This document shows positions 2,901-44,694 of a stretch of DNA of 45,391 nucleotides, piece after piece (within the stretch, counting starts at the first letter, position 1; each line of letters begins with the position of its first letter). The notes beneath the pieces were generated by a model. It searched no databases and had not been told where the DNA came from. It saw nothing but the letters and a program-made list of their open reading frames with translations. Origin of the DNA: a virus (taxonomy: Duplodnaviria; Heunggongvirae; Uroviricota; Caudoviricetes); the IMG/VR virus record IMGVR_UViG_2778261297_000007, positions 1-45,391 of that record. One strand, 5' to 3'. The position numbers were made by a program, and so were the translations under genes.

Positions 2901-3113
2901 TCAAATAAGTTTGCTGCGTTGCGATAGCCATTCATCAATCTCTGATTCAACCCATCCAACAGATTTCACTCCGAGCATTCGCTTTTTGGGGAAGGAAGCG
3001 TCGTAACGCGGTGATTTGGGGTTCAACCAGTCGTAGATTGTTGCCCTTGCCATACCAGTTTTTTGGATTACCGTAGGTAAGCGGAGTATCCTAACGGTTG
3101 ATGGATTGTTCAT
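2901..3113 (-). CDS. alpA: AlpA-family transcriptional regulator
   Basis: 70-aa protein with the characteristic AlpA motif (ILRLPTVIQKTGMARATIYDWL...); located near a P4-type integrase. Confidence 0.8.
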   Translation of the reverse strand: MNNPSTVRILRLPTVIQKTGMARATIYDWLNPKSPRYDASFPKKRMLGVKSVGWVESEIDEWLSQRSKLI

Positions 3114-14362: not shown

Positions 14363-14674
14363 ATGGATCGCCTAATTAGAGAAATGTCGTATCTCTTTAC
14401 CAAGCAGCGTTTTATGGAGCTTCAGGAAACGGCAAAAGACATCGCAATCGGTCATAGTGATTTTCCTGAGTGTTTCGGTCTTATTGCTGACGCCATCGCT
14501 GAATTTGTTGAAGACACTCCTGATGATGAGTGGCGAGAGCATGAAAAAATCCTTATGCACTACGTTGCTATGCGTGTTCTGACGCTGTGGGGTAACGGCG
14601 ATAAAGTGACTGATGTCCAGTGGGCGCACCCTGGCTGGTTTGGCACTGCTGAAAAGGGGGAAACCATTCAATGA
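14363..14674 (+). CDS. Hypothetical protein
   Basis: 103-aa ORF with GAGG RBS, translationally coupled to Q. Confidence 0.4.
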   Translation: MDRLIREMSYLFTKQRFMELQETAKDIAIGHSDFPECFGLIADAIAEFVEDTPDDEWREHEKILMHYVAMRVLTLWGNGDKVTDVQWAHPGWFGTAEKGETIQ

Positions 14675-15507
14675 AGTTGGAAGCATCACTAAAACACTTT
14701 AGCCCTCAGGGTGTGCACATCAGCGACGACGTGAAAGGAACCTCTCCGGACCGCCTTACAGGAACAGATGTAATGGCGGCAATTGGCACCACCAGCAGCC
14801 GTGCGCGCTTCGGACTGGCGGCGTTCTTCGGTAAAGCGGGAATCAGCAAAACGGATGAACAGCTCGCAGTTCAGGCGCTGGCGCGATATGCGATGGATGT
14901 CGCACCGAAGAATGTTCGCAAAGCAGCTGGTGGGCAGTTCGGATGGTGCATGCAGATGTTGGCACAATTTGCCTTTGCTGATTATTCACGTTCGGCGGCT
15001 ACAAGCGTGACGTGTCACAGCTGCAGTGGTACCGGACGAACAACCCGCGAACAGATTACCCGCAAGGTTTCGTACCCATGGGGTAAAGCTCCATACTGGG
15101 CCTGCCGCTCTCGTGCTGTTCGACCGTCTGACTGGGAGCAGTGGATGGAGGTAACAGAGGTTGTACCGGCGGTCTGTGATGCTTGCGAAGGCAAGGGAAC
15201 GATCAGCGCCCGTTGTCGTTGCGGCGGTAAAGGCGAGGTTCTAGACCGCAAGGCCACAAGCGAGCGCGGCGCGCCGGTGTTTAAAACCTGCGAGCGCTGC
15301 AGCGGAAATGGATTTTCTGCGGTGCCGTCTACCGCAGCCTATAAAGTGATACTGAAGCGCGTTCCGGATCTGCACGTCAGAACATGGACTCGCAACTGGA
15401 AACCGTTTCTTGAGGCGCTGGTAAGCATTTGTCAGCAGGAGGAGGGAAACGCCGCAAGAGAATTTCAATCTGCAACCAGTTTAGGCGAAGAAGGTGACGA
15501 AATTTAG
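14671..15507 (+). CDS. Q: Antitermination protein Q-like (zinc-finger type)
   Basis: Cys-rich CxxC clusters (CHSCSGTG, CDACEGKG, CERCSGNG); located between the replication and lysis modules as for lambdoid Q. Confidence 0.6.
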   Translation: MKLEASLKHFSPQGVHISDDVKGTSPDRLTGTDVMAAIGTTSSRARFGLAAFFGKAGISKTDEQLAVQALARYAMDVAPKNVRKAAGGQFGWCMQMLAQFAFADYSRSAATSVTCHSCSGTGRTTREQITRKVSYPWGKAPYWACRSRAVRPSDWEQWMEVTEVVPAVCDACEGKGTISARCRCGGKGEVLDRKATSERGAPVFKTCERCSGNGFSAVPSTAAYKVILKRVPDLHVRTWTRNWKPFLEALVSICQQEEGNAAREFQSATSLGEEGDEI

Positions 15508-15596: not shown

Positions 15597-15618
15597 AGCC
15601 CCTTGCGGGGCTTTTTTA
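15597..15618. terminator. Hairpin terminator between Q and the convergent moron
   Basis: aagcccc-ttgc-ggggctt followed by T6 on the plus strand; overlaps the moron stop codon. Confidence 0.5.
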
Positions 15619-16566
15619 TGGCAGCGAGTTAACGAAAGAACTGAAAAGGGCCTTATCTTTATTGCTAATTGATTTTTTCAAATGTAGTTGATGATTTAAA
15701 GGTTTAAAGTTTTCCTTTGTGAGATATATACATGCTTTCTCAAAACGATCCTGAAGGAATTGAAATCTTTCATTCAGCCTGGAAACTTTTAATCCTAATG
15801 ACATGACCTTCTTCTCAGGAATATCGTCAGGATTGCAATTATTGAGTTCTTCCAGCACAAGGCGAATATCTCTTTCGAAGATTAGCGCTATGTTATAATC
15901 GTTGAGGAGGCATTCAGGATTACGAACAATGCCAATTACTTCGTCGATGAATTGTGGTTTTACATTATCCTCAGCATTTTCATCTTCGTTATCGGAAGGT
16001 TTTTGAGACATAACATTCGACAACTGCATTTCTTCCTTGGTTTTCCTTCTGGGAAGTAAAACTTTTCCATCTCCTAAAGCAGCCATACGTTTCAAAGCTT
16101 GACTCCCGGCTCGGCCAACTACTTTAGAATCTCTTAAATCTAAAATTTTATGTGCGACCCATTCTAATGATGGTTCACTGGCTTCGATTTTGGCTTTTGC
16201 TTGGTAATGGAGAAAAATATTTTTCTTGGCTTCCTTGAGGGCTGTTAGATATCTGTGGAAATTTGCCTTTTTCTCGAGGTCAGTGGCTAGGTTTTCAAAT
16301 GCTATACCGAAGACTTTTGTACCGCAAACGTGACCCAGGTTCGTCTCCAGACCATCCTCAGTAAGAACAAGAAACCCTTTTTTATGGCCTGTTCGACAGC
16401 TCGACTTGCCACACGGGATTTCTTCCGGGAGGTCATCATAATAACCAAAAACATCGGATAATTGTTGATCGGTCAGTTCCAGCCTGGAATGATAGCTTTC
16501 CCGAGCTTGAATTTCTGTCCAGTCATTAATGCGATCAAAGCTATTGCCGTTTTTAATAAAAATCAT
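15616..16566 (-). CDS. Moron: 316-aa protein of unknown function (AT-rich, Cys/His cluster near N-terminus)
   Basis: Long ORF on the opposite strand to the flanking late/regulatory genes, low GC, no recognisable domain; N-terminal PCGKSSCRTGHKKG...GHVCG motif. Confidence 0.55.
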   Translation of the reverse strand: MIFIKNGNSFDRINDWTEIQARESYHSRLELTDQQLSDVFGYYDDLPEEIPCGKSSCRTGHKKGFLVLTEDGLETNLGHVCGTKVFGIAFENLATDLEKKANFHRYLTALKEAKKNIFLHYQAKAKIEASEPSLEWVAHKILDLRDSKVVGRAGSQALKRMAALGDGKVLLPRRKTKEEMQLSNVMSQKPSDNEDENAEDNVKPQFIDEVIGIVRNPECLLNDYNIALIFERDIRLVLEELNNCNPDDIPEKKVMSLGLKVSRLNERFQFLQDRFEKACIYLTKENFKPLNHQLHLKKSISNKDKALFSSFVNSLP

Positions 16567-16690: not shown

Positions 16691-16767
16691 CGGCCCTTTA
16701 GCTCAGTTGGTTAGAGCGTGCGACTCATAATCGCCCGGTCGCTGGTTCAAGTCCAGCAAGGGCCACC
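16691..16767 (+). tRNA. tRNA-Ile2 (CAU, ileX-like; may score as tRNA-Met)
   Basis: Cloverleaf with anticodon loop CTCATAA; close to the E. coli ileX sequence as recalled; ends in CCA. Confidence 0.7.
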
Positions 16768-16769
16768 AG

Positions 16770-16844
16770 ACCGCCACTAGCTCATCGGGAAGAGCGGCAA
16801 CCCAGGTGTTGTGGTACGGGGTTCGAGGCTCCGGTGGCGGACCA
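16770..16844 (+). tRNA. tRNA-like sequence with anomalous anticodon arm (possible pseudo-tRNA or unusual tRNA)
   Basis: Good 7-bp acceptor stem, D arm and T arm (TTCGAGG loop), CCA end; by hand-folding the anticodon loop is 6 nt (CCAGGT), so the anticodon is unresolved. Confidence 0.4.
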
Positions 16845-16846
16845 CT

Positions 16847-16922
<76 letters not shown>

Positions 16923-16925
16923 TAT

Positions 16926-17000
<75 letters not shown>

Positions 17001-17407: not shown

Positions 17408-17811
17408 GCCCGCATTATCTTCATTGAAAACTGGCAACTCAGAGAATCATCCAAATTAAAAAAGCAGCAACGAGAGCGATTACTAATACATTCTTCGCTT
17501 TTTCTCTTCTGCTGGCCTTCACAAAAGGATTCACTATCCGGCAGTGGCTACACACAAGTGATTCTGGGTTAATTAACTTTCCGCAGTAGGGACAGGGCTT
17601 GATAATCATTGGTACTAATTAAGTTGTGAGAACGTAGTCTCATTTAACCACATTTATCGAGTTGTTTTACTAATGGTCTAGTTATTTCAGACATATTCAT
17701 CAATTTCAGGCTCACGGGAATCATCCGCTACGTGCTTTGTTGATAAATCCAGCCCGTGAAGCCTGACCCTTTCATCACACACAGCACCCGCTAACTATGC
17801 GAGGTGAGGCT

Positions 17812-18150
17812 ATGAAAATGAATGACAAGAACCCTGAATTCTGGGCTGCGGCTTTGACCGGACTCAAAAATGCGTGGCCCCAGATTCTGGGGGCGTCAAT
17901 GGCCGGACTCATTGCCTATGGTCGTCTGATATATGACGGTGCAACACGAAAAAATAAATGGCTTGAGGGCGTCCTTTGTGGCGCCCTTTCTTTATGCATC
18001 ACCAGCGCGCTTGATGTGGTTGGCCTTCCTGTATCGATATCACCGTTCGTCGGTGGTGTGATTGGATTCGTTGGCGTGGACAAACTGCGCGAGATCGCTA
18101 TCAGCGCACTCAGAAAAAGGGCAGGGGTGAACGATGACAATCAGCAATGA
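17812..18150 (+). CDS. S: Holin, lambda S-like with dual-start motif (MKM)
   Basis: Resembles lambda S in layout: MKM dual start, hydrophobic TM segments, C-terminal KRAGVNDDNQQ; GGTGAGG RBS. Confidence 0.7.
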   Translation: MKMNDKNPEFWAAALTGLKNAWPQILGASMAGLIAYGRLIYDGATRKNKWLEGVLCGALSLCITSALDVVGLPVSISPFVGGVIGFVGVDKLREIAISALRKRAGVNDDNQQ

Positions 18151-18622
18151 ACCGCGCTGGCTGGTGGAAGCCCGTAAATACATGGGGCAGATGGAAATTA
18201 AAGGCCCGCGACACAATCCGTTAATCCTCCAGTTCTGGAAGGACATTAAACGAGGTGGAATTAAAGATGATGAAACGCCCTGGTGTGCAGCCTATGTCGG
18301 ATCCATGCTTGAAAGAGTCGGAATTAGATCAACCCGGTTCGAGTCTGCTAAATCCTACCTGTCCTGGGGCGTCGAACTTAAGGAGCCTGCTTACGGCTGC
18401 ATTGTTGTATTCACACGAGACGGCGGCGGCCATGTCGGATTTGTGGTCGGACAGCAGCAAAATGGTGACCTGATGGTATTGGGTGGTAATCAGTCAGATG
18501 CTATCAATATTCGTGCATTCTCACGTTCCCGCGTGACGGGTTATCGTTGGCCGGTTAACGAGCCGAGGGATAGCCGCATGTTACCGTTGATGAATGGCAC
18601 CAGTTCGGTGAAAGAATCATGA
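18134..18622 (+). CDS. Putative endolysin (Cys/His peptidase-like, TIGR02594-type)
   Basis: Position between holin and Rz; conserved Cys (PWCAAYVG) and His (GGGHVGFVVG) suggestive of a CHAP/NlpC-P60-like fold. Family assignment is from memory. Confidence 0.5.
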   Translation: MTISNEPRWLVEARKYMGQMEIKGPRHNPLILQFWKDIKRGGIKDDETPWCAAYVGSMLERVGIRSTRFESAKSYLSWGVELKEPAYGCIVVFTRDGGGHVGFVVGQQQNGDLMVLGGNQSDAINIRAFSRSRVTGYRWPVNEPRDSRMLPLMNGTSSVKES

Positions 18623-19182
18623 TTGAAGCTCTACTCGCATCACTGAAAACGTCATGGCGCTGGTGGCTGGTAATTATCGCGGTGGTTATTGTCGTTGGCG
18701 CTGTCGCTATTCTCGGTGTTCTGCTGGCACACAGCCAGGCTGACCTGAGCACAGCGCAAAGCGATAAGCGAGTTCTGGAGCATGATAACGCGCTACAGGG
18801 ACGGGTTATCGCGGTGCAGGCTTTCAACTTCAACCGCTTCAATCAGGTGGCTGAGAATGCCAGCCGCCTTAATTCGTTGATCGATGCAGGTACCGAAAAG
18901 ACTGTCATCGAATACCGGGAGATTCTTCGACGTGAAAAAACTTGTGACCTGCCTGTTCCTGCTGATGTCGCTGGTGGGTTGCTCGACTACGCGAACCGTT
19001 TACGTACCGGGGCAATGCACACCGATTCCGGGAGCGCTGACGCAGCCAGTGATAACGCCACTACCGCCAGCACCCTGACATATTGCCAGGCTGTTCTATG
19101 GATTAAGCCGTTGCTGGCTGCTATTGAAAAAGCGAATAACCAACTGGCAGGAATACGCCGGATCGAACAGGAACGGCAATAG
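18619..19182 (+). CDS. Rz: Rz-like i-spanin
   Basis: N-terminal TM helix (WRWWLVIIAVVIVVGAVAILGVLLA), coiled-coil-like body, immediately after endolysin. Confidence 0.6.
   Translation: MIEALLASLKTSWRWWLVIIAVVIVVGAVAILGVLLAHSQADLSTAQSDKRVLEHDNALQGRVIAVQAFNFNRFNQVAENASRLNSLIDAGTEKTVIEYREILRREKTCDLPVPADVAGGLLDYANRLRTGAMHTDSGSADAASDNATTASTLTYCQAVLWIKPLLAAIEKANNQLAGIRRIEQERQ
18932..19078 (+). CDS. Rz1: Rz1-like o-spanin lipoprotein embedded in Rz (+1 frame)
   Basis: GTG start preceded by GGGAG; lipobox LVGC and Pro-rich C-terminus (VITPLPPAP) fully inside Rz. Confidence 0.5.
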   Translation: MKKLVTCLFLLMSLVGCSTTRTVYVPGQCTPIPGALTQPVITPLPPAP

Positions 19183-19308
19183 CATTACAGCAGGCATTCA
19201 CTGAGTGCCTGCGACAAAGCTAAATGGCATCAAGCATGCGATGATGATTGATTAATAATTGAACTATGCATGGTATAATAAGCCCCATTCATTGAAAGGT
19301 TAACCACC

Positions 19309-19473
19309 ATGTCATTTTTCGATTATGCAATGCAGCGTGTTGGGCTTGTAGCCAATATGACTGTCACGTGTCCGATATGTGGACATAAATCCACACACTC
19401 GACCACGAAAGTACGCCAGCAACAGGCGTTACTTTGCCCTAAATGTAAATCGCTGTTTGTCATTCACAGGTAG
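19309..19473 (+). CDS. Small zinc-ribbon protein (54 aa)
   Basis: Two CxxC pairs (CPICGH...CPKCKS); followed by a hairpin and T-run at 19493-19522; below ORF-track cutoff, found by manual translation. Confidence 0.35.
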   Translation: MSFFDYAMQRVGLVANMTVTCPICGHKSTHSTTKVRQQQALLCPKCKSLFVIHR

Positions 19474-19560
19474 TGGGTCGCGATACAAATAACCCCAGGC
19501 CTCGCAATAGCGGGGCTTTTTTATGCGTATCACACATCCACATGTAAAAGGAAAAATACC

Positions 19561-20235
19561 ATGAGTAACAAAATCATTACGCTATCTGGCGCTGCTAATG
19601 AAGTGCTTTATGCGCTGTTTTTCCGTGGCGCGTTGCTGTCTGGTGATCTGCCTTCTAAATCTGGCACAGCCGAATTGCGCGAGCTTGGTTTTGCTGAAAC
19701 CAGACACACAGCAACCGAATACCAGAAAGAAAATCACTTTACCTTTCTGACGTCAGAAGGTCAGAAATTTGCCGTTGAACATCTGGTCAATACGCATTTT
19801 GGTAAGCAGCAATATTGCACTTCGATGACGCTTGGCGTTGAGATTGATACCTCACCATTTGTTGTGAAGAACGGTGAGGTATTCATCAAGGAAGCCAATA
19901 TCGCTGGTGGTTCTATCCGCGCTGCCGAATTAGAAAAGCCTCAGCCGGTGACCAATATCTACAACATCAATTTTGGTGCTCGCAGTGATGAACCGGCACA
20001 GAACCAGGTAACCATCAGCGCCGACAAATTCGAAGTTAACTCTGGCGTCGATACCAATCTCGAAGCGGTGCTTGGTAACTCGCTGAAAAATGCTGCTGAA
20101 TGTGCGGCGCTGGATGTCGCAAAGCAAATGGCAGCAGACAAGAAAGCAATGGATGAATTAACTTCCCATGTCCGCAAGGCCATTATGATGGAATGTTTCC
20201 CCGGTGGCGTTATCTGGCAGCAGTGCCGTCGATAG
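19561..20235 (+). CDS. Hypothetical protein (224 aa)
   Basis: ORF between lysis and packaging modules; no domain recognised. Confidence 0.45.
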   Translation: MSNKIITLSGAANEVLYALFFRGALLSGDLPSKSGTAELRELGFAETRHTATEYQKENHFTFLTSEGQKFAVEHLVNTHFGKQQYCTSMTLGVEIDTSPFVVKNGEVFIKEANIAGGSIRAAELEKPQPVTNIYNINFGARSDEPAQNQVTISADKFEVNSGVDTNLEAVLGNSLKNAAECAALDVAKQMAADKKAMDELTSHVRKAIMMECFPGGVIWQQCRR

Positions 20236-20249
20236 CCTGTGGAGGTCAT

Positions 20250-20483
20250 ATGCGTCTCACTGTATTAGATGACGATCCCGGCAGGAAGATTAATCTCGGT
20301 GTAGAGCGATACGCTGTTTTTCTCGATGGTATTGAAGTTAAACATGTCTTCACTGCTGACGATGAGAAGGGCGAAGTAATCGCTGCTGTTCTCGATGAGC
20401 GTGGTTATATGACGACAGATAACGGTGAAGTGAAGCGGCATACGCTTTACGGTTCCGTGAGGATTGAACCATGCCAGCGTTAA
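20250..20483 (+). CDS. Hypothetical protein (77 aa)
   Basis: Short ORF immediately upstream of and overlapping the HNH endonuclease gene. Confidence 0.4.
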   Translation: MRLTVLDDDPGRKINLGVERYAVFLDGIEVKHVFTADDEKGEVIAAVLDERGYMTTDNGEVKRHTLYGSVRIEPCQR

Positions 20484-20821
20484 TCCCTCGCGCATGTCGC
20501 AAGAGAGGTTGTCCCGGTACGACAACGGATCGCTCTGGCTACTGTCAGCAGCATCGCAATGAGGGCTGGCAGCAGCATCAGCAGGGTAAGAGTCGCCATG
20601 AACGTGGCTACGGCGGCAAGTGGGATATCAAGCGCGCCCGCATCCTGAAGCGTGATAATCATCTGTGTCAGAACTGCCTGCGTAGTGGACGTGCTGTCGC
20701 GGCCACAACCGTTGACCATATCAAGGCTAAGGCACATGGGGGTACCGATGATGATTCGAACCTTGAAAGCCTCTGCTGGCCCTGCCACCGCTCGAAAACA
20801 GGTCGCGAGCGCTTTAAATGA
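20471..20821 (+). CDS. HNH endonuclease (packaging-associated)
   Basis: Zinc-binding CxxC pairs and HNH core (DHIKAKAHGGTDDDSNLESLCWPCHRSKT); sits just upstream of terminase small subunit. Confidence 0.75.
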   Translation: MPALIPRACRKRGCPGTTTDRSGYCQQHRNEGWQQHQQGKSRHERGYGGKWDIKRARILKRDNHLCQNCLRSGRAVAATTVDHIKAKAHGGTDDDSNLESLCWPCHRSKTGRERFK

Positions 20822-20977
20822 TAGTAATTATCATCAACAGGCGTAGAGGGGAGGGGGAGGTCAAATCCCTGTAGCCGAGAGCCCAAAGGACCGCCGCCTA
20901 GCCTTTCTTCACATCGCCGCAGGTTAGAAAACTTTTTTTGGGGTTCCCCAGCCGATGATTAATAGGAGTTTTCGATT

Positions 20978-21451
20978 ATGTCAGGACCGCCGAAAACCCC
21001 TACCCATCTGCGTTTGGTGAGGGGTAACCCATCAAAACGACCGATCAACAATAACGAGCCGAAACCACCTAAAGGGGTCCCCCCAGTTCCCAAGCATTTC
21101 GACAAGCAGGGGAAGTACTGGTTTAAGCGGATGGCTGAAGAGTTGGACGCCATCGGCGTGATCTCCCAGCTTGACGGGCGAGCCCTTGAACTGCTTGTGG
21201 AAGCGTATACCGAATACAGACATCACTGCGACACGCTGGAGATTGAGGGGTATACGTACCGAACTGAAACGCAGACTGGTGACGTCATGATAAAGGCACA
21301 TCCGGCAGCAATTATGAAAGCCGACGCCTGGAAAAGGCTGCGAGCCATGCTTGGTGAGTTCGGAATGACGCCTGCCAGTCGATCGAAAGTAAGTACAAAA
21401 ACTCCGGGCGAAGTTGATCTTATTGCTGAATTTATGAAAGCGAGGGACTAA
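20978..21451 (+). CDS. Terminase small subunit (P27-family-like)
   Basis: 157-aa protein immediately upstream of and coupled to the large terminase. Confidence 0.7.
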   Translation: MSGPPKTPTHLRLVRGNPSKRPINNNEPKPPKGVPPVPKHFDKQGKYWFKRMAEELDAIGVISQLDGRALELLVEAYTEYRHHCDTLEIEGYTYRTETQTGDVMIKAHPAAIMKADAWKRLRAMLGEFGMTPASRSKVSTKTPGEVDLIAEFMKARD

Positions 21452-23208
21452 TGGCTAAAGTTTCCGATGGGATACGTTACGCCGAACGCGTCGTTGCCGG
21501 TGAAGTTATCACTTGTGAATTTGTCCGTCTCGCCTGCCAGCGTTTTCTTGATGATCTGAAGTACGGTGAAGAACGTGGTATCTATTTCAGCGAGCCCCGC
21601 GCACAGCACATCCTCAACTTCTATAAATTCGTGCCTCATGTTAAAGGAGCACTGGCAGGCCAGCCGATTGAGCTGATGGACTGGCATGTTTTCATTCTTA
21701 TCAACATCTTCGGTTTTGTTATCCCCCTGGTAAATGAAGAAACAGGCGAAGTTGTGTTGCGTAATGATGGCAGTGGCCGTCCTGTGATGGTCCGCAGGTT
21801 TCGCACGGCATATAACGAGGTAGCCCGTAAAAACGCCAAGTCGACATTATCCTCTGGCGTTGGTCTCTATATGGCTGGCGCCGATGGTGAGGGCGGGGCA
21901 GAGGTTTATTCCGCAGCGACAACGCGGGATCAGGCTCGCATCGTTTTTGAAGATGCGAAAAACATGGTTAAAAAAGCGAAACCCACACTGGGGCGACTGT
22001 TTGAATTCAATAAACTGGCGATCTACCAGGAGCAGACAGCATCCAAGTTTGAACCGCTTTCTTCTGATGCCAACAATCTGGATGGTCTCAATATCCATTG
22101 TGGCATCGTCGACGAACTTCATGCGCATAAAACCCGTGATGTCTGGGACGTTCTGGAGACTGCAACCGGCGCACGATTGCAGTCCCTTCTGTTTGGCATA
22201 ACGACAGCGGGTTTTAACAAAGAAGGTATTTGTTACGAGCTGCGCGATTATGCCATTAAGGTGCTGCGTGGTTATAACAGCGAAGTGGAAGGCGCGGTAA
22301 AAGACGATACCTTTTTCGCCATCATCTTCACCCTGGATAAGGATGATGATCCGTTTGATGAAACGGTCTGGCAAAAGGCTAACCCTGGGCTTGGTATCTG
22401 TAAGCGCTGGGATGATCTTCGCCGCCTGGCTAAGAAGGCCAAAGAACAGGTTTCCGCCAGGGTTAACTTTTTTACCAAACACATGAATATCTGGGTGACG
22501 GCAGAGTCAGCCTGGATGGACATGATTAAGTGGGAAAACTGTGAGTTTATAGCCCCCCGTCATGAGCTGAAAACCTACCCGATGTGGGCTGGCGTGGATC
22601 TGGCCCACAAGATTGATATTTGCGCAGCAGTAAAACTCTGGCGGGCAGACAACGGCCACGCGCATGCAGACTTTAAATTCTGGTTACCCGAAGGGCGGCT
22701 GGAAAAATGTTCCGCTCAAATGGCGCAGATGTATCGCAAATGGGCCGAGCTTGGAAAGCTGGAACTGACCGATGGTGATGTTATCGATCATGCGCAGATT
22801 AAAGCTGATTTTCTGGAATGGATTAGCGGCGAAAACCTGAAGGAAACCGGGTTTGACCCCTGGAGCGCAACGCAGTTTAGCCTGGCTCTGGCAGAAGAGG
22901 GTGTGCCGCTGGTAGAGGTTCCGCAAACGGTCAGAAACTTTTCTGAGTCAATGAAAGAAGTGGAGTCTCTGGTTTATGGTGGGCGTTTTCATCACAGCAA
23001 TCATCCGGTTATGAACTGGATGATGTCTAACGTCACCGTCAAGCCTGACAAAAACGACAATATCTTTCCGAACAAATCCACGCCAGAAGCGAAAATAGAC
23101 GGGCCTGCCGCCTTGTTTACCGCAATGAGCCGCATGCTTGTAAACGGCGGCGAACAACAGGACAGCCTCTCTGACCATCTGGAAAGTTACGGCGTCCGTT
23201 CATTATAA
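21451..23208 (+). CDS. Terminase large subunit
   Basis: 585-aa ORF with ATPase and nuclease halves; position before the portal gene. Confidence 0.85.
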   Translation: MAKVSDGIRYAERVVAGEVITCEFVRLACQRFLDDLKYGEERGIYFSEPRAQHILNFYKFVPHVKGALAGQPIELMDWHVFILINIFGFVIPLVNEETGEVVLRNDGSGRPVMVRRFRTAYNEVARKNAKSTLSSGVGLYMAGADGEGGAEVYSAATTRDQARIVFEDAKNMVKKAKPTLGRLFEFNKLAIYQEQTASKFEPLSSDANNLDGLNIHCGIVDELHAHKTRDVWDVLETATGARLQSLLFGITTAGFNKEGICYELRDYAIKVLRGYNSEVEGAVKDDTFFAIIFTLDKDDDPFDETVWQKANPGLGICKRWDDLRRLAKKAKEQVSARVNFFTKHMNIWVTAESAWMDMIKWENCEFIAPRHELKTYPMWAGVDLAHKIDICAAVKLWRADNGHAHADFKFWLPEGRLEKCSAQMAQMYRKWAELGKLELTDGDVIDHAQIKADFLEWISGENLKETGFDPWSATQFSLALAEEGVPLVEVPQTVRNFSESMKEVESLVYGGRFHHSNHPVMNWMMSNVTVKPDKNDNIFPNKSTPEAKIDGPAALFTAMSRMLVNGGEQQDSLSDHLESYGVRSL

Positions 23209-40762: not shown

Positions 40763-40778
40763 ATTGCCTGGAGAAAAT

Positions 40779-41786
40779 ATGCTTTATAACACCGGCACCA
40801 TCGCCATTAATGGAAATACCGCCACCGGGACGGGTACAAACTGGACGGCACCGGCCAGCCAGGTTCGCGCTGGGCAGACAATTATCGTGATGTCTAACCC
40901 GGTGCAGCTGTTCCAGATTTCATCCGTGAACAGCGCCACGTCAATGACGATTACGCCTGCAGCTTCTCCGGCGCTGAGCGGCCAGAAATACGCCATTCTG
41001 GTGTCAGACATTATCTCCGTCGACGGACTGGCCCAGGCAATGTCGCAGCTTATCAAGGAGTATGACGAGAATATTGGTGCGTGGGAGACGTTCGCCACAA
41101 CCTCAGCCAACCAGAACATTACCGTTACGATCAATGGCACCAGTTTATCAATCCCGGCTCTTGGGAAATTACTGCAGAAGGGGAGCAACGGAGCTTTGCC
41201 GGTTAATCAAGGTGGTACCGGCGCAACGAATGCCGCAGACGCTCGCACAAACCTTGGTTTGGGAGAAGGTGCTCCAGCTATTGGCGTTCCGTTCTTCTGG
41301 CCGTCCGCCGCAATGCCAAATACTGTAATCGACAGTTGGTCCAGTATGGTGTTTTTGAAGTTCAACGGCGCGAAATTCTCTGCCACTGATTACCCTGTGC
41401 TGGCGAAAGTGTTTCCGGCGCTAGCATTACCTGACGCACGGGGTGATTTCATTCGTATCTGGGATGATGGGCGCGGGATTGATGTCGGACGTACCCTACT
41501 TTCAGGGCAATCACACACAATTATGGATCATGCACACAATATGGAATTGTGGACGGGGGACGGGCTTGCCGCAGGAAGTGCACGGGAAGGAGTAAACCCA
41601 GGAATACTGGCTACATACGGTGACGGGGGAATAGTTAAAACGGACGAACCCGGTCTTAAGGTGCCTTCCTCACTACGAGCTCTTAGCTCTCGTAGTGTTA
41701 AACGTTATGGTGAAATTAGTGGAAATGTAGATACAGAAACCCGTCCACGAAATATTGCATTTAACTTTCTGGTGAGGGCTAAATAA
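40779..41786 (+). CDS. Side tail fibre protein (constant N-part + invertible C-part)
   Basis: Gly/Thr/Asn-rich fibre-like sequence; the inversion crossover repeat lies inside the gene at 41254-41268. Confidence 0.7.
   Translation: MLYNTGTIAINGNTATGTGTNWTAPASQVRAGQTIIVMSNPVQLFQISSVNSATSMTITPAASPALSGQKYAILVSDIISVDGLAQAMSQLIKEYDENIGAWETFATTSANQNITVTINGTSLSIPALGKLLQKGSNGALPVNQGGTGATNAADARTNLGLGEGAPAIGVPFFWPSAAMPNTVIDSWSSMVFLKFNGAKFSATDYPVLAKVFPALALPDARGDFIRIWDDGRGIDVGRTLLSGQSHTIMDHAHNMELWTGDGLAAGSAREGVNPGILATYGDGGIVKTDEPGLKVPSSLRALSSRSVKRYGEISGNVDTETRPRNIAFNFLVRAK
41254..41268 (+). repeat. Inversion crossover site, left (inverted repeat of 43114-43128)
   Basis: ttggtttgggagaag, exact reverse complement at 43114-43128; embedded in palindromic caaacc-TT-ggtttg resembling gix/hix/cix sites. 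Confidence 0.6.
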
Positions 41787-42379
41787 TGATACCTGTTTTT
41801 GATGAAAATGGGCTGGCTACAGTGCCGGGCGATATGCGTTGTTTTTATTATAATGCAGTAACGTATGAATATACCGGCTGGTCTGATGAATATATTAATA
41901 CTGGCGTAAGTATACCCGCCTGTTCCACTGGTATTGACCCGGGCGAAAACATCCCGGGAAAAGTGGCAGTATTTACGGGTAAGGGATGGAGCCATGAAGA
42001 AGACCATCGCAATGAGACCGTTTACTCAACTGAAAATGGCGCAGCTGTTACAGTGGATTATATCGGTGCCATCAAAGACGGTTATGTCACGCTTTCACCG
42101 TTAACGCCATACGATAAATGGGATGGTGAGAAATGGGTGACGGATACCGAGGCACAGCATAGCGCCGCAGTAGAAGCGGCAGAAGCACAGCGCCAGTCGC
42201 TGATTGATGCTGCAATGGCTTCCATCAGTCTGATTCAACTGAAATTACAGGCTGGGCGGAAGCTGACGCAGCCAGAAAACACCCGACTTAACGCTGTGCT
42301 GGATTACATTGACGCGGTGACGGCAACAGATACCAGCACAGCGCCGGACGTCATCTGGCCTGAACTGCCGGAGGCGTAG
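41786..42379 (+). CDS. Tail fibre assembly protein (Tfa)
   Basis: 197 aa immediately after the fibre gene. Confidence 0.7.
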   Translation: MIPVFDENGLATVPGDMRCFYYNAVTYEYTGWSDEYINTGVSIPACSTGIDPGENIPGKVAVFTGKGWSHEEDHRNETVYSTENGAAVTVDYIGAIKDGYVTLSPLTPYDKWDGEKWVTDTEAQHSAAVEAAEAQRQSLIDAAMASISLIQLKLQAGRKLTQPENTRLNAVLDYIDAVTATDTSTAPDVIWPELPEA

Positions 42380-42794
42380 ACCATTCAATATCTGGCGCAC
42401 CGGAAGTATCGACCAGTTCCAGTGCGTCCAGATAATCCAGCCACAAATTATATTGCGCCAGTTCCTCACCTTTCAGACGACCAATTGATGCTTTACCTGG
42501 CCATTGTTTACTGTTTATGTATTCGTTGGCCTGGTTAATCAATTGCTGCTTTTTAGTTTCGGCTGATGCAATTTGTTCTTCACGTGTTGGTGGAGGAATA
42601 TCTGCCCATGCAGGCAGTCCATCCTCTCCGACACATCTGTATTTTCCTTCTGGTGGTGTATCATAGAAATATTCCCTGAAAATTACTTCGTCTATATCAA
42701 CACCTTTTTCTTCAGGCCATTCACCTTTTTCAACATAAAGAGACTGAAGTTCGTAAGGATATGCCAGGTTGTTTACGTACAGATATTTCATCAT
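42351..42794 (-). CDS. Alternative tail fibre assembly protein (Tfa') in invertible segment
   Basis: 147 aa convergent with tfa; C-terminal region similar to the + strand Tfa (…GAPD(V/I)(I/E)W…). Confidence 0.65.
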   Translation of the reverse strand: MMKYLYVNNLAYPYELQSLYVEKGEWPEEKGVDIDEVIFREYFYDTPPEGKYRCVGEDGLPAWADIPPPTREEQIASAETKKQQLINQANEYINSKQWPGKASIGRLKGEELAQYNLWLDYLDALELVDTSGAPDIEWSTPPAVQAR

Positions 42795-43147
42795 TACCAG
42801 CCCTTAGCGAAAAACGCACCACCTTCAAGACCATAATTGCAGTGAGCTATGAAGCCGGTAGTGCTCCAGTTGGTCGCCCCCCACATATTCCCGCCCCCGA
42901 AACCACCATCGCACACAATTACAATGCCCGGTGTCTGTGTAAATGGAATCGGGAATGAAACATTGGCGGATACAGGCCCGTGTTCACCAGGAAAACTAAT
43001 TCGTCCCCACTGTTCAATTGAACCATCTGGCATTTTTCGCCAGCCTGAACCTGATGCATATGATGACATATCAGGTATCTGATTTTCCCCTGTTCCCACA
43101 TTCCGTTTTGCCGCTTCTCCCAAACCAACCTTTTTTATAACCATCAA
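42794..43147 (-). CDS. Alternative tail-fibre C-terminal segment (expressed as fusion after inversion)
   Basis: Reads through the right crossover repeat encoding VGLGE, the same residues (LGLGE) encoded at the left repeat in the fibre gene; the first 6 codons lie outside the invertible segment. Confidence 0.55.
43114..43128 (-). repeat. Inversion crossover site, right
   Basis: cttctcccaaaccaa = reverse complement of 41254-41268; ~40 bp upstream of the invertase gene. Confidence 0.6.
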
Positions 43148-43170
43148 AAATCTGGTGATGCTTCGCCGTT

Positions 43171-43193
43171 TCTCCTGTTTTCATAACAGGAGA
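43171..43193 (+). promoter_or_regulatory. Perfect 9-bp-stem hairpin sequestering the invertase RBS
   Basis: tctcctgtt-ttcat-aacaggaga; the 3' arm contains the AGGAG Shine-Dalgarno 8 nt before the invertase ATG. Confidence 0.4.
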
Positions 43194-43199
43194 AATCCC

Positions 43200-43754
43200 A
43201 TGATTTACGGTTATGCCCGAGTATCAACAAACCACCAGGACACTGAATTGCAACTAACGGCGCTCAAGTCAGCGGGTTGTGAGAAAATTTTTGAAGAGCA
43301 TGCCAGCGGGAGGAAATCGAATCGGCCGGTTCTAAAACGGCTCATCGCCACTATGCAGCCGGGGGATGAACTGGTGGTCTGGAAGCTGGACAGGATAGGC
43401 CGCAACGTTCTGCATGCGCTGTTGATGTTCCAGCAGTTACAGGAAAAGGGTATCAACTTCCGCAGTATTACCGATGGCGTGGATCTCAAAACAGCCAGCG
43501 GCCGCTATAACTTTCGTAACATCCTTTCCGCAGCACAATATGAATCTGATCTTAATAGCGAACGTACCTTAGCAGGGCTGGCCGTAGCCAGGGCAAAAGG
43601 GCGAGTTGGTGGTCGCAGGCCTAAGTTCACGGATGAGCAATGGGCACAGGCTGGGAGATTAATATTAAACGGCGTGGATAGAAAACAAGTGGCAATAATT
43701 TATGATGTCGCTGTATGCACGCTTTATAAAAAATTTCCGGTGGGACAGGCTTAA
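43200..43754 (+). CDS. Serine recombinase, DNA invertase (Hin/Gin/Pin/Cin family)
   Basis: N-terminal catalytic motif MIYGYARVSTNHQDTELQ (Ser in YARVST) and C-terminal HTH; next to the inverted repeats. Confidence 0.85.
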   Translation: MIYGYARVSTNHQDTELQLTALKSAGCEKIFEEHASGRKSNRPVLKRLIATMQPGDELVVWKLDRIGRNVLHALLMFQQLQEKGINFRSITDGVDLKTASGRYNFRNILSAAQYESDLNSERTLAGLAVARAKGRVGGRRPKFTDEQWAQAGRLILNGVDRKQVAIIYDVAVCTLYKKFPVGQA

Positions 43755-44331: not shown

Positions 44332-44694
44332 TGGTGGAGCTGGCGGGAGTTGAACCCGCGTCCGAAATTCCTACATCCTCGGTACTACATGCTTAGTCAG
44401 TCTTTACATTCGCTTGCCAGCTGCGGACGGACACGCCACTAACAAACTAGCCTGATTAAGTTTTAACGCTTCAACCCCAGGCAGGGCTTCCACGCGATCT
44501 CTTTTGGGTTTGACCTCTCTTGATCCCCGTCCTAAGAGCGGAGGCTAGGGAGAGAGGGCTCTAAGCAGGTTATTAAGCTGCTAAAGCGTAGTTTTCGTCG
44601 TTTGCGACTATTTTTTGCGGCTTTTTACGAGGCCAACCGCCCCTCGGCATGCACCTTGGGTTTCGCAAATCCCGTCGAATCCAGAATCAGCCCC
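44332..44694 (-). ncRNA. ssrA: tmRNA (SsrA)
   Basis: Reverse complement begins GGGGCTGATTCTGGATTCGACGGGATTTGCGAAACCC and ends ...GGACGCGGGTTCAACTCCCGCCAGCTCCACCA; contains the tag-template region (...AAACGACGAAAACTACGCTTTAGCAGCTTAA). Confidence 0.9.

Follow-up and report, generated by a model that had tools for sequence, protein, structure and literature searches.

The segment between the lysis and packaging genes of this lambdoid prophage (the window, i.e. the whole stretch of DNA analysed, comprises 45,391 nucleotides; a tmRNA gene adjoins at 44332-44694) raises the question whether the three consecutive open reading frames located there form a single block, as described in a first-pass annotation, and which roles could be assigned to their products. 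The frames, encoding proteins of 54, 224 and 77 amino acids, were recovered on the plus strand, and their site was confirmed to be preceded by holin, CHAP-domain endolysin and Rz genes and followed by HNH and terminase genes (Table 1). The exact sequences of all three proteins are already present in NCBI and other collections, and each of them has hundreds of homologues; in consequence, they are considered as real genes and not as chance open reading frames. The proteins are labeled in the databases as "YnfU family zinc-binding protein" (54 aa), "Fur-regulated protein" or "phage tail tip fiber protein" (224 aa) and "hypothetical protein" (77 aa); all three are catalogued publicly and, as the first-pass annotation had supposed, without a known function. 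No homology to a conserved accessory protein of lysis or packaging was found, so that the finding named in the first-pass annotation as its refutation did not occur.

As judged from sequence comparison, the region consists of three separately shuffled, already catalogued accessory cassettes of prophages that lie outside the lysis and packaging machinery. At a rough probability of 0.55, the three cassettes represent independent accessory genes: a ynfU moron of the lysogen, a late conflict gene encoding the 224-aa protein and a late accessory gene encoding the 77-aa protein.

Table 1. Features between and around the lysis and packaging genes (coordinates refer to the window).
Feature	Coordinates	Strand	Remarks
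Holin	17797-18150		upstream of the three-gene region
CHAP-domain endolysin	18134-18622		upstream of the three-gene region
Rz-like spanin	18619-19182		upstream of the three-gene region
Hairpin GCAGGCATTCACTGAGTGCCTGC	19190-19212	+	directly 3' of the Rz stop; recurring mosaic boundary sequence
Sigma-70-like promoter (putative)	19252-19279	+	TTAATA, 16-nt spacer, TATAAT, extended -10 TG
54-aa YnfU-family zinc-ribbon gene	19309-19473	+	
Intrinsic terminator	19497-19522	+	9-bp G+C-rich stem, AATA loop, T-run
224-aa gene	19561-20235	+	phi80 orf66 / N15 gp59 / 'Fur-regulated protein' family
77-aa acidic protein gene	20250-20483	+	13-nt stop overlap with the HNH start
HNH endonuclease	20471-20821	+	PF01844 (E 3.8e-15), phrog_144; first gene of the HK97-type packaging module
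Fur-box-like palindrome TTAAATGATAGTAATTATCATCAAC	20814-20838	.	beside cos
P27-type small terminase	20978-21451		downstream packaging module
Large terminase	21451-23208		downstream packaging module

The mosaic structure became evident from a megablast search with positions 19100-20900: the segment was resolved into three abutting pieces that were each matched in different records, and no single record spanned the entire stretch. The first piece (19191-19526) was 96% identical to Citrobacter phage Chris1, the second (19539-20235) showed 88-90% identity to phi80 and a prophage of E. coli Nissle, and the third (20234-20900) was 95% identical to a prophage of E. coli SZQ1. In a blastn comparison with all fetched related loci, homology repeatedly broke off at 19182 or 19247, 19472, 19521-19535 and 19539-19545. 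The hairpin that follows the Rz gene is a stable one (RNA folding energy of -16.8 kcal/mol, z = -4.5), and the surrounding segment 19180-19221 is conserved to 93-95% across loci that differ in their downstream content.

Among the loci of the 224-aa family, 73 had sufficient flanking sequence for synteny counts: the 77-aa gene was the adjacent downstream neighbor in 27 of them, a lambda-type Nu1 terminase gene followed within 500 nt in 22, ynfU was located upstream in 16, and the TaiEcA/AtiEcA pair was positioned immediately upstream in 11. Viewed from the 77-aa gene, a gene of the 224-aa family ended about 15-20 nt upstream in 43 of 77 loci and was absent from this position in the rest; the HNH gene either overlapped the stop codon of the 77-aa gene or was situated 2-2.8 kb further on, behind other cargo. 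Taken over 160 related loci, homology breakpoints and synteny describe three independently assorting modules, and the single three-gene block of the first-pass annotation has to be given up; an annotation that presents the genes in the manner of an operon is not warranted. Its description of the site as a variable slot for accessory genes in lambdoid phages holds, with the qualification that the 224-aa gene behaves as a conserved anchor with which the late region ends on its right-hand side. The locus is a case of routine prophage mosaicism that alters the annotation, not the biology. In lambdoid prophages, the slot between lysis and packaging genes is known as a hot spot at which morons as well as defence and counter-defence genes are found: Tai defence genes are located 'predominantly upstream of the packaging module', and AtiEcA is encoded there by a counter-defence gene on the late strand (PMC11364771); in one of the related loci (L132), the slot is occupied by an Acb2/Tad1-hairpin protein.

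The 54-aa protein, formerly described as an unnamed zinc ribbon, belongs to a named family. It matched the NCBIfam model NF038384 with an E value of 7.5e-21 (73.5 bits, cut-off 36) and the Pfam family PF23499 with 35.9 bits (cut-off 27), and its two CPxC knuckles (C21-P-I-C24 and C43-P-K-C46) as well as its length fit YnfU proteins of about 50-56 aa. The same two knuckles have been described for YnfU of E. coli K-12 (10.1101/511675), to which the 54-aa protein is 39% identical over the core. On these grounds the protein is a member of the YnfU family with predicted zinc binding, and the gene should be named ynfU.

The hairpin and T-run noted downstream of this gene proved to be a canonical intrinsic terminator (9-bp stem with six G-C pairs, followed by a T-run). 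Upstream of the gene, a promoter-like site (19252-19279) has 10 of 12 consensus matches and the TG of an extended -10 element, a quality of site that is not commoner here than in shuffled sequence. This promoter-like site had been overlooked in the first-pass annotation. Homology of the ynfU cassette has its left breakpoint at 19182 or 19247 and its right breakpoint at 19472 or 19521-19535; in one class of loci it starts at 19247 and ends at 19521-19535, so that the limits of the cassette coincide with promoter and terminator. In Chris1, the same cassette (unannotated) precedes a lambda-type packaging module in a context without the 224-aa gene.

Morons are promoter-gene-terminator inserts of lambdoid phages, as defined for HK97 and HK022. 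The ynfU cassette possesses a terminator of its own and has been gained and lost as a unit, as shown by the breakpoints at its ends, its presence in the 16 loci counted above and its occurrence in another context in Chris1; by its predicted elements, the segment 19247-19535 is a classic moron with a putative sigma-70-like promoter. The cassette, self-contained by these predicted elements, travels as a unit between phages. In the lysogen, the putative sigma-70 promoter of the cassette would drive ynfU, as might be the case for the abundant K-12 homologue. [quoted passage not shown] The basic zinc ribbon of 54 aa would act by binding a host or phage macromolecule.

For the 224-aa protein, the assumed lack of recognizable domains was not borne out. 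The protein belongs to phrog_17079 as a full-length member (E 2.9e-125) and is 75% identical over 100% of its length to phi80 orf66 (ORF x171.28), which is annotated as "similar to N15 gp59". It further contains a match to PF09327 (Phage_Tail_Tip) of 30 bits (cut-off 22), an incomplete one that covers profile positions 70-107, i.e. 38 of 139; relatives of the protein reach 34-37 bits with this profile, and the longer ones carry larger pieces of the domain. An alignment with the J protein encoded by the phage itself pairs residues of about 63-134 with positions 1051-1122 of J (pair E value 2e-4, 27% identity). In a profile search against solved structures, the family gave only a weak match to an F2-pyocin tail fibre (E 0.17).

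Structure prediction with AlphaFold was based on an alignment of 150 sequences including 50%-cluster representatives (mean pLDDT 77.9); a model from 58 close homologues (pLDDT 41.7) was not used. The larger alignment fixed the N- and C-terminal parts of the model, not the middle: residues 84-160, into which the PF09327 match falls, are of low confidence (pLDDT about 50), and residues 161-212 are predicted as one long helix (pLDDT >90) that is followed by a conserved PGG motif. The N-terminal domain (about aa 5-80) is modeled as a winged-helix fold resembling MarR; searches of the 224-aa protein against Pfam and NCBIfam gave no MarR hit. With a pI of 6.4 (whole protein 5.6) the N-domain is not basic, which argues against a role in DNA binding and renders such a role doubtful.

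The family is a narrow one: clustering at 50% identity gives 131 clusters in a set of 1.84 billion representatives. Its domains are heavily shuffled, in that the first 85 residues are found by themselves or joined to different C-termini, and different N-termini are found in front of the C-terminal part. Virulent phages (about 157 kb) of Salmonella, Klebsiella and E. coli, as well as Erwinia jumbo phages, encode homologues of the N-domain in the form of small hypothetical proteins. Within the family, the N-domain has a mean identity of 91.5% compared with 72-75% for the remainder of the proteins. The extensive shuffling together with the conservation of the N-domain gives the family, as far as sequences can tell, an arms-race-like appearance.

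The stretch from the ynfU terminator to the start of the 224-aa gene contained no promoter-like site. Since the gene has no promoter of its own and is located behind this terminator, and since the Q antiterminator is encoded in the window (14671-15507), its expression is probably late and Q-dependent: synthesis of the 224-aa protein would require read-through by Q-modified RNA polymerase in the late phase of the lytic cycle. The anatomy of the locus suggests late-only expression of the 77-aa gene as well. The sole experimental data on the 224-aa family come from the Tai study (PMC11364771), in which phi80 deleted for orf62-orf66 was built, plated and found viable; among the single deletions of orf62, 64, 65 and 66, a drop in titre was reported only for orf64 (atiEcA). 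The viability of phi80 without orf62-66 means that the family is dispensable for lysis, packaging and tail assembly under laboratory conditions. With respect to function, the 224-aa protein may be an oligomerising adaptor made up of a conserved head of the winged-helix type, a variable stretch derived from the tip of J and a long helix; the variable stretch would have been copied from the C-terminal tip domain of this central tail fibre. Presumably, the protein is not a morphogenetic, lysis or packaging protein and could be an accessory factor in conflicts, interacting with J or with factors by which J is recognized. The family thus described comprises conserved, dispensable, domain-shuffled late genes beside cos in many enterobacterial prophages, and neither "Fur-regulated" nor "tail tip fibre protein" is an appropriate name for its members.

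The start of the 77-aa protein was assigned to an internal ATG of a 96-aa open reading frame, which is preceded by GGAGG and agrees with the length of the homologues (75-78 aa). The protein is acidic (pI 5.0) and has 258 homologues in prophages of Enterobacterales (Citrobacter, Enterobacter, Klebsiella, Salmonella, E. coli). It matched phrog_3540 (E 1.9e-9) and phrog_24619 (E 2e-8), both of unknown function, and gave no match in Pfam, NCBIfam or PADLOC; the profile search of its family against solved structures resulted in a non-significant TRAP match (E 0.56), and neither this match nor that of the 224-aa family to the pyocin fibre was counted toward a function. The stop/start overlap of 13 nt suggests translational coupling to the HNH gene, i.e. 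translation of the 77-aa gene would be coupled to that of HNH by the overlap; the pairing is not obligatory, as the 77-aa gene is also found without an adjacent HNH gene. The 77-aa protein is likely to be a small late accessory protein that is often paired with the 224-aa family. Homology to AtiEcA, a protein of the same size and place, was considered and rejected (hhalign probability 1.1%; the proteins belong to phrog_20632 versus phrog_3540 and phrog_24619). Likewise, there was no similarity to the 77-aa open reading frame that precedes HNH in HK97.

Among the other explanations, iron regulation of the genes, as expressed by the database name 'Fur-regulated protein', is regarded as very improbable. 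Strong Fur boxes do exist in these prophages: the best match to the 19-bp Fur consensus in the whole window (15/19) is located at 20820-20838 just after the HNH stop, the same palindrome directly follows the stop codon of the 224-family gene in phi80-type phages, immediately 5' of cosQ, and a third cos type again has it just left of cos. The Fur sites listed for E. coli K-12 include strong ones upstream of both genes homologous to the Nu1 small terminase gene, nohA and nohB, the cluster at nohB ranking third in strength with 25.3 bits; the nohA site, the counterpart of the present box, was bound by Fur in gel shift and had been cloned by in vivo Fur selection (PMC2189734). The scan upstream of ynfU and of the 224-aa gene, however, gave no match better than 12/19, and lambda has a perfect TGATAATCATTATCA at the corresponding cos-proximal place but no homologue of the 224-aa or the 77-aa protein at its right end. 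As the only strong Fur box is cos-proximal and downstream, the name most probably records a neighboring box rather than the regulation of the gene; it is historical and not family-defining. The same proximity to cos could point to packaging accessory factors, the winged helix of the 224-aa protein binding cos DNA and the 77-aa protein working with HNH and terminase. The gene of the 224-aa family is indeed the last or second-last before cos beside three packaging types, the modeled MarR-like fold would be compatible with a DNA ligand, and the stop codon of the 77-aa gene overlaps the HNH start. Yet three unrelated terminase systems would hardly be served by one and the same protein, both proteins are absent from lambda and HK97, the N-domain lacks a basic character, and HNH is often found only at the distance from the 77-aa gene given above or is missing from the fetched flank. 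Given, in addition, the viable phi80 deletion and the absence of a reported titre drop for the orf66 single mutant (PMC11364771), this explanation is considered unlikely, although a role in packaging that is redundant under laboratory conditions could also account for the constant location next to cos.

A further proposal would assign the 224-aa gene, the 77-aa gene or both to lysogen-expressed defence or exclusion against other phages, in accordance with the character of the slot as a defence hot spot and with possible read-through from the putative ynfU promoter. It has little probability: both genes are without a promoter of their own, behind a terminator and on the late strand, PADLOC models gave no meaningful match to any of the three proteins, and the deletion of taiEcA alone abolished the interference of phi80 with HK106 (PMC11364771). 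More specific is the proposal that proteins of the phi80-orf66 type, including the 224-aa protein, are late decoys of the J tip that titrate Tai-type inhibitors of tail assembly or sensors of the J C-terminus; a scaffold of winged helix and coiled coil would display the J mimic, and the targets would be carried by rival prophages or satellites. Escape mutations from Tai map to the C-terminal region of J, the very region to which the PF09327 segments of the family align, so that the family carries a fragment of the tail-fibre domain targeted by this defence; moreover, its gene directly follows taiEcA/atiEcA in the 11 loci mentioned, has the same late orientation as AtiEcA, and the Tai authors leave open whether anti-Tai factors act against non-cognate Tai. 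On the other hand, loss of orf64 alone caused autoimmunity of phi80, so orf66 does not neutralise TaiEcA (PMC11364771), the identity to the J protein of the phage itself is only 27%, and the middle segment is poorly modeled. The decoy proposal is accordingly held to be improbable at present; if the overlap between the J fragment and Tai were more than coincidence, it would point to a decoy-type counter-defence. Three independent accessory genes, a moron of the lysogen and two late genes, remain the preferred interpretation of the locus.

Compared with known systems, the 54-aa protein resembles YnfU from the cryptic Qin prophage of E. coli K-12 by its curated HMM family, its size, its CPxC pair and its location on a prophage. 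The K-12 gene is positioned between Q and holin antisense to the late operon, whereas the present one follows Rz, is encoded on the late strand and has a terminator and a putative promoter of its own; the K-12 copy thus occupies a different moron slot. As in the morons of lambdoid phages, all three parts are present in the ynfU cassette (the promoter being predicted), the homology limits match them, and the neighborhoods vary.

The domains of the 224-aa protein are reminiscent of several protein types. Relative to winged helices of the MarR/PadR type, the helix equivalent to H2 is reduced in the model to a conserved GDLPSKSG loop, a match to the sequence families is lacking, and the N-domain is not basic. 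The motif G-x-V-F-I-x-x-A-x-I-x-x-G-x-I of the tail-tip domain (PF09327) is common to J and the 224-aa protein; in contrast to J, the latter has only a fragment of this domain, to which a winged helix and a long helix are joined, with the rest of J absent, and its gene is located far from the tail genes. The F2-pyocin tail fibre matched weakly in the profile search (PDB 25vf) belongs to the same comparison.

The closest counterparts of the 224-aa protein are phi80 orf66, N15 gp59 and phiKO2 gp59, which belong to the same family and share the position of the last gene before cos. The common form of the phi80-orf66 family has 242 aa, 18 of which are missing from the 224-aa copy, and in the phi80-type relatives the gene is followed by a lambda-type cos and Nu1, in contrast to the 77-aa gene and the HK97-type HNH/P27 module in the present prophage. 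The window contains no homologue of TaiEcA, for which tblastn gave no match better than E 4.8, and none of AtiEcA. AtiEcA of phi80 (76 aa) is nevertheless comparable to the 77-aa protein in being a late product encoded just before the packaging region (PMC11364771), the sequences of the two being unrelated; and the TaiEcA/AtiEcA pair occupies the same hot spot and, in phi80-like prophages, directly adjoins the gene of the 224-aa family.

The position of a strong Fur-box palindrome was constant among the compared loci: it lies just left of cos, in lambda-type phages immediately 5' of cosQ, and it adjoins at least three packaging types. The palindrome scores 15-16/19, the copy of lambda (L165) being perfect (TGATAATCATTATCA); for its positions in the window and in the related loci L013 and L022 see the table. 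No paper that connects the Fur-box palindrome with cosQ was found in the literature. Upstream of nohA and nohB, the Nu1-homologue genes of E. coli K-12, strong Fur sites have been catalogued; Fur binding is known for the nohA site (PMC2189734).

Features in the window and in related loci
Feature	Coordinates	Strand	Position and remarks
315-aa ORF	15616-16566	minus	antisense to late operon, between Q and tRNA cluster
tRNA cluster, four genes	16692-17000		between Q and lysis genes
55-aa zinc-ribbon ORF	17439-17609	minus	antisense, between tRNA cluster and holin
Hairpin without T-run	19190-19212		very stable (z = -4.5), directly past Rz stop
Fur-box palindrome	20814-20838		match to 19-position consensus
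Fur-box palindrome, L165 (lambda)	3050-3070		match to 19-position consensus
Fur-box palindrome, L013 and L022			directly past 224-family stop codon; match to 19-position consensus
Tail fibre gene region through DNA invertase	40764-43754
Tail-fibre-assembly gene 1	41786-42379	plus
Tail-fibre-assembly gene 2	42351-42794	minus
DNA invertase	43155-43754
TaiEcA/AtiEcA pair, L015 and L016	~1.3 kb upstream of 224-family gene	minus (TaiEcA)
Slot around 77-aa gene, L132	2801-3085, 3190-3435, 3746-5203		related prophage

At the Rz end of the accessory region, the segment 19180-19221, which includes the hairpin, is 93-95% conserved among loci whose downstream genes differ; in this it resembles a mosaic boundary sequence. 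In some of the related prophages (loci L015 and L016), the pair formed by the phi80 tail assembly inhibitor TaiEcA and its antidote AtiEcA is inserted exactly between ynfU and the 224-family gene. Homology to ynfU stops there at the ynfU stop codon; the ynfU terminator was therefore replaced in these two loci. According to the alignment with its relatives, the 224-aa protein of the window (19561-20235) is devoid of 18 residues (AAQKAIDELDQRI... region) that are found in the common 242-aa form, phi80 orf66 included, and correspond to a short helical stretch right before the J-like segment.

The profile of the 77-aa family (window 20250-20483) matched TRAP, the trp RNA-binding attenuation protein of 75 aa, weakly and not significantly (E 0.56); the match was collinear (residues 29-73 onto 29-73). 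In L132, three proteins are encoded in the slot around the 77-aa gene: one with an Acb2/Tad1-hairpin domain, a DUF2560 protein, and one of 485 aa that weakly matches glycosyltransferase-2; the Acb2/Tad1-hairpin-domain family comprises anti-CBASS and anti-Thoeris sponge proteins.

Further to the right in the window, the tail fibre gene precedes a pair of oppositely oriented tail-fibre-assembly genes and the DNA invertase, an arrangement that looks like an invertible host-range switch.

Between Q and holin, the 315-aa antisense ORF had phrog_7003 (function unknown) as its sole match and none in Pfam or PADLOC; it is a candidate for a moron expressed in the lysogen. The adjacent tRNA genes are those for Met, a tRNA of unassigned anticodon, Thr and Gly. 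The 55-aa zinc-ribbon ORF encodes a DUF2116-like protein with a C-terminal hydrophobic helix; it does not belong to the YnfU family. In Qin of E. coli K-12, ynfU itself occupies the same kind of slot in the same orientation as this ORF.
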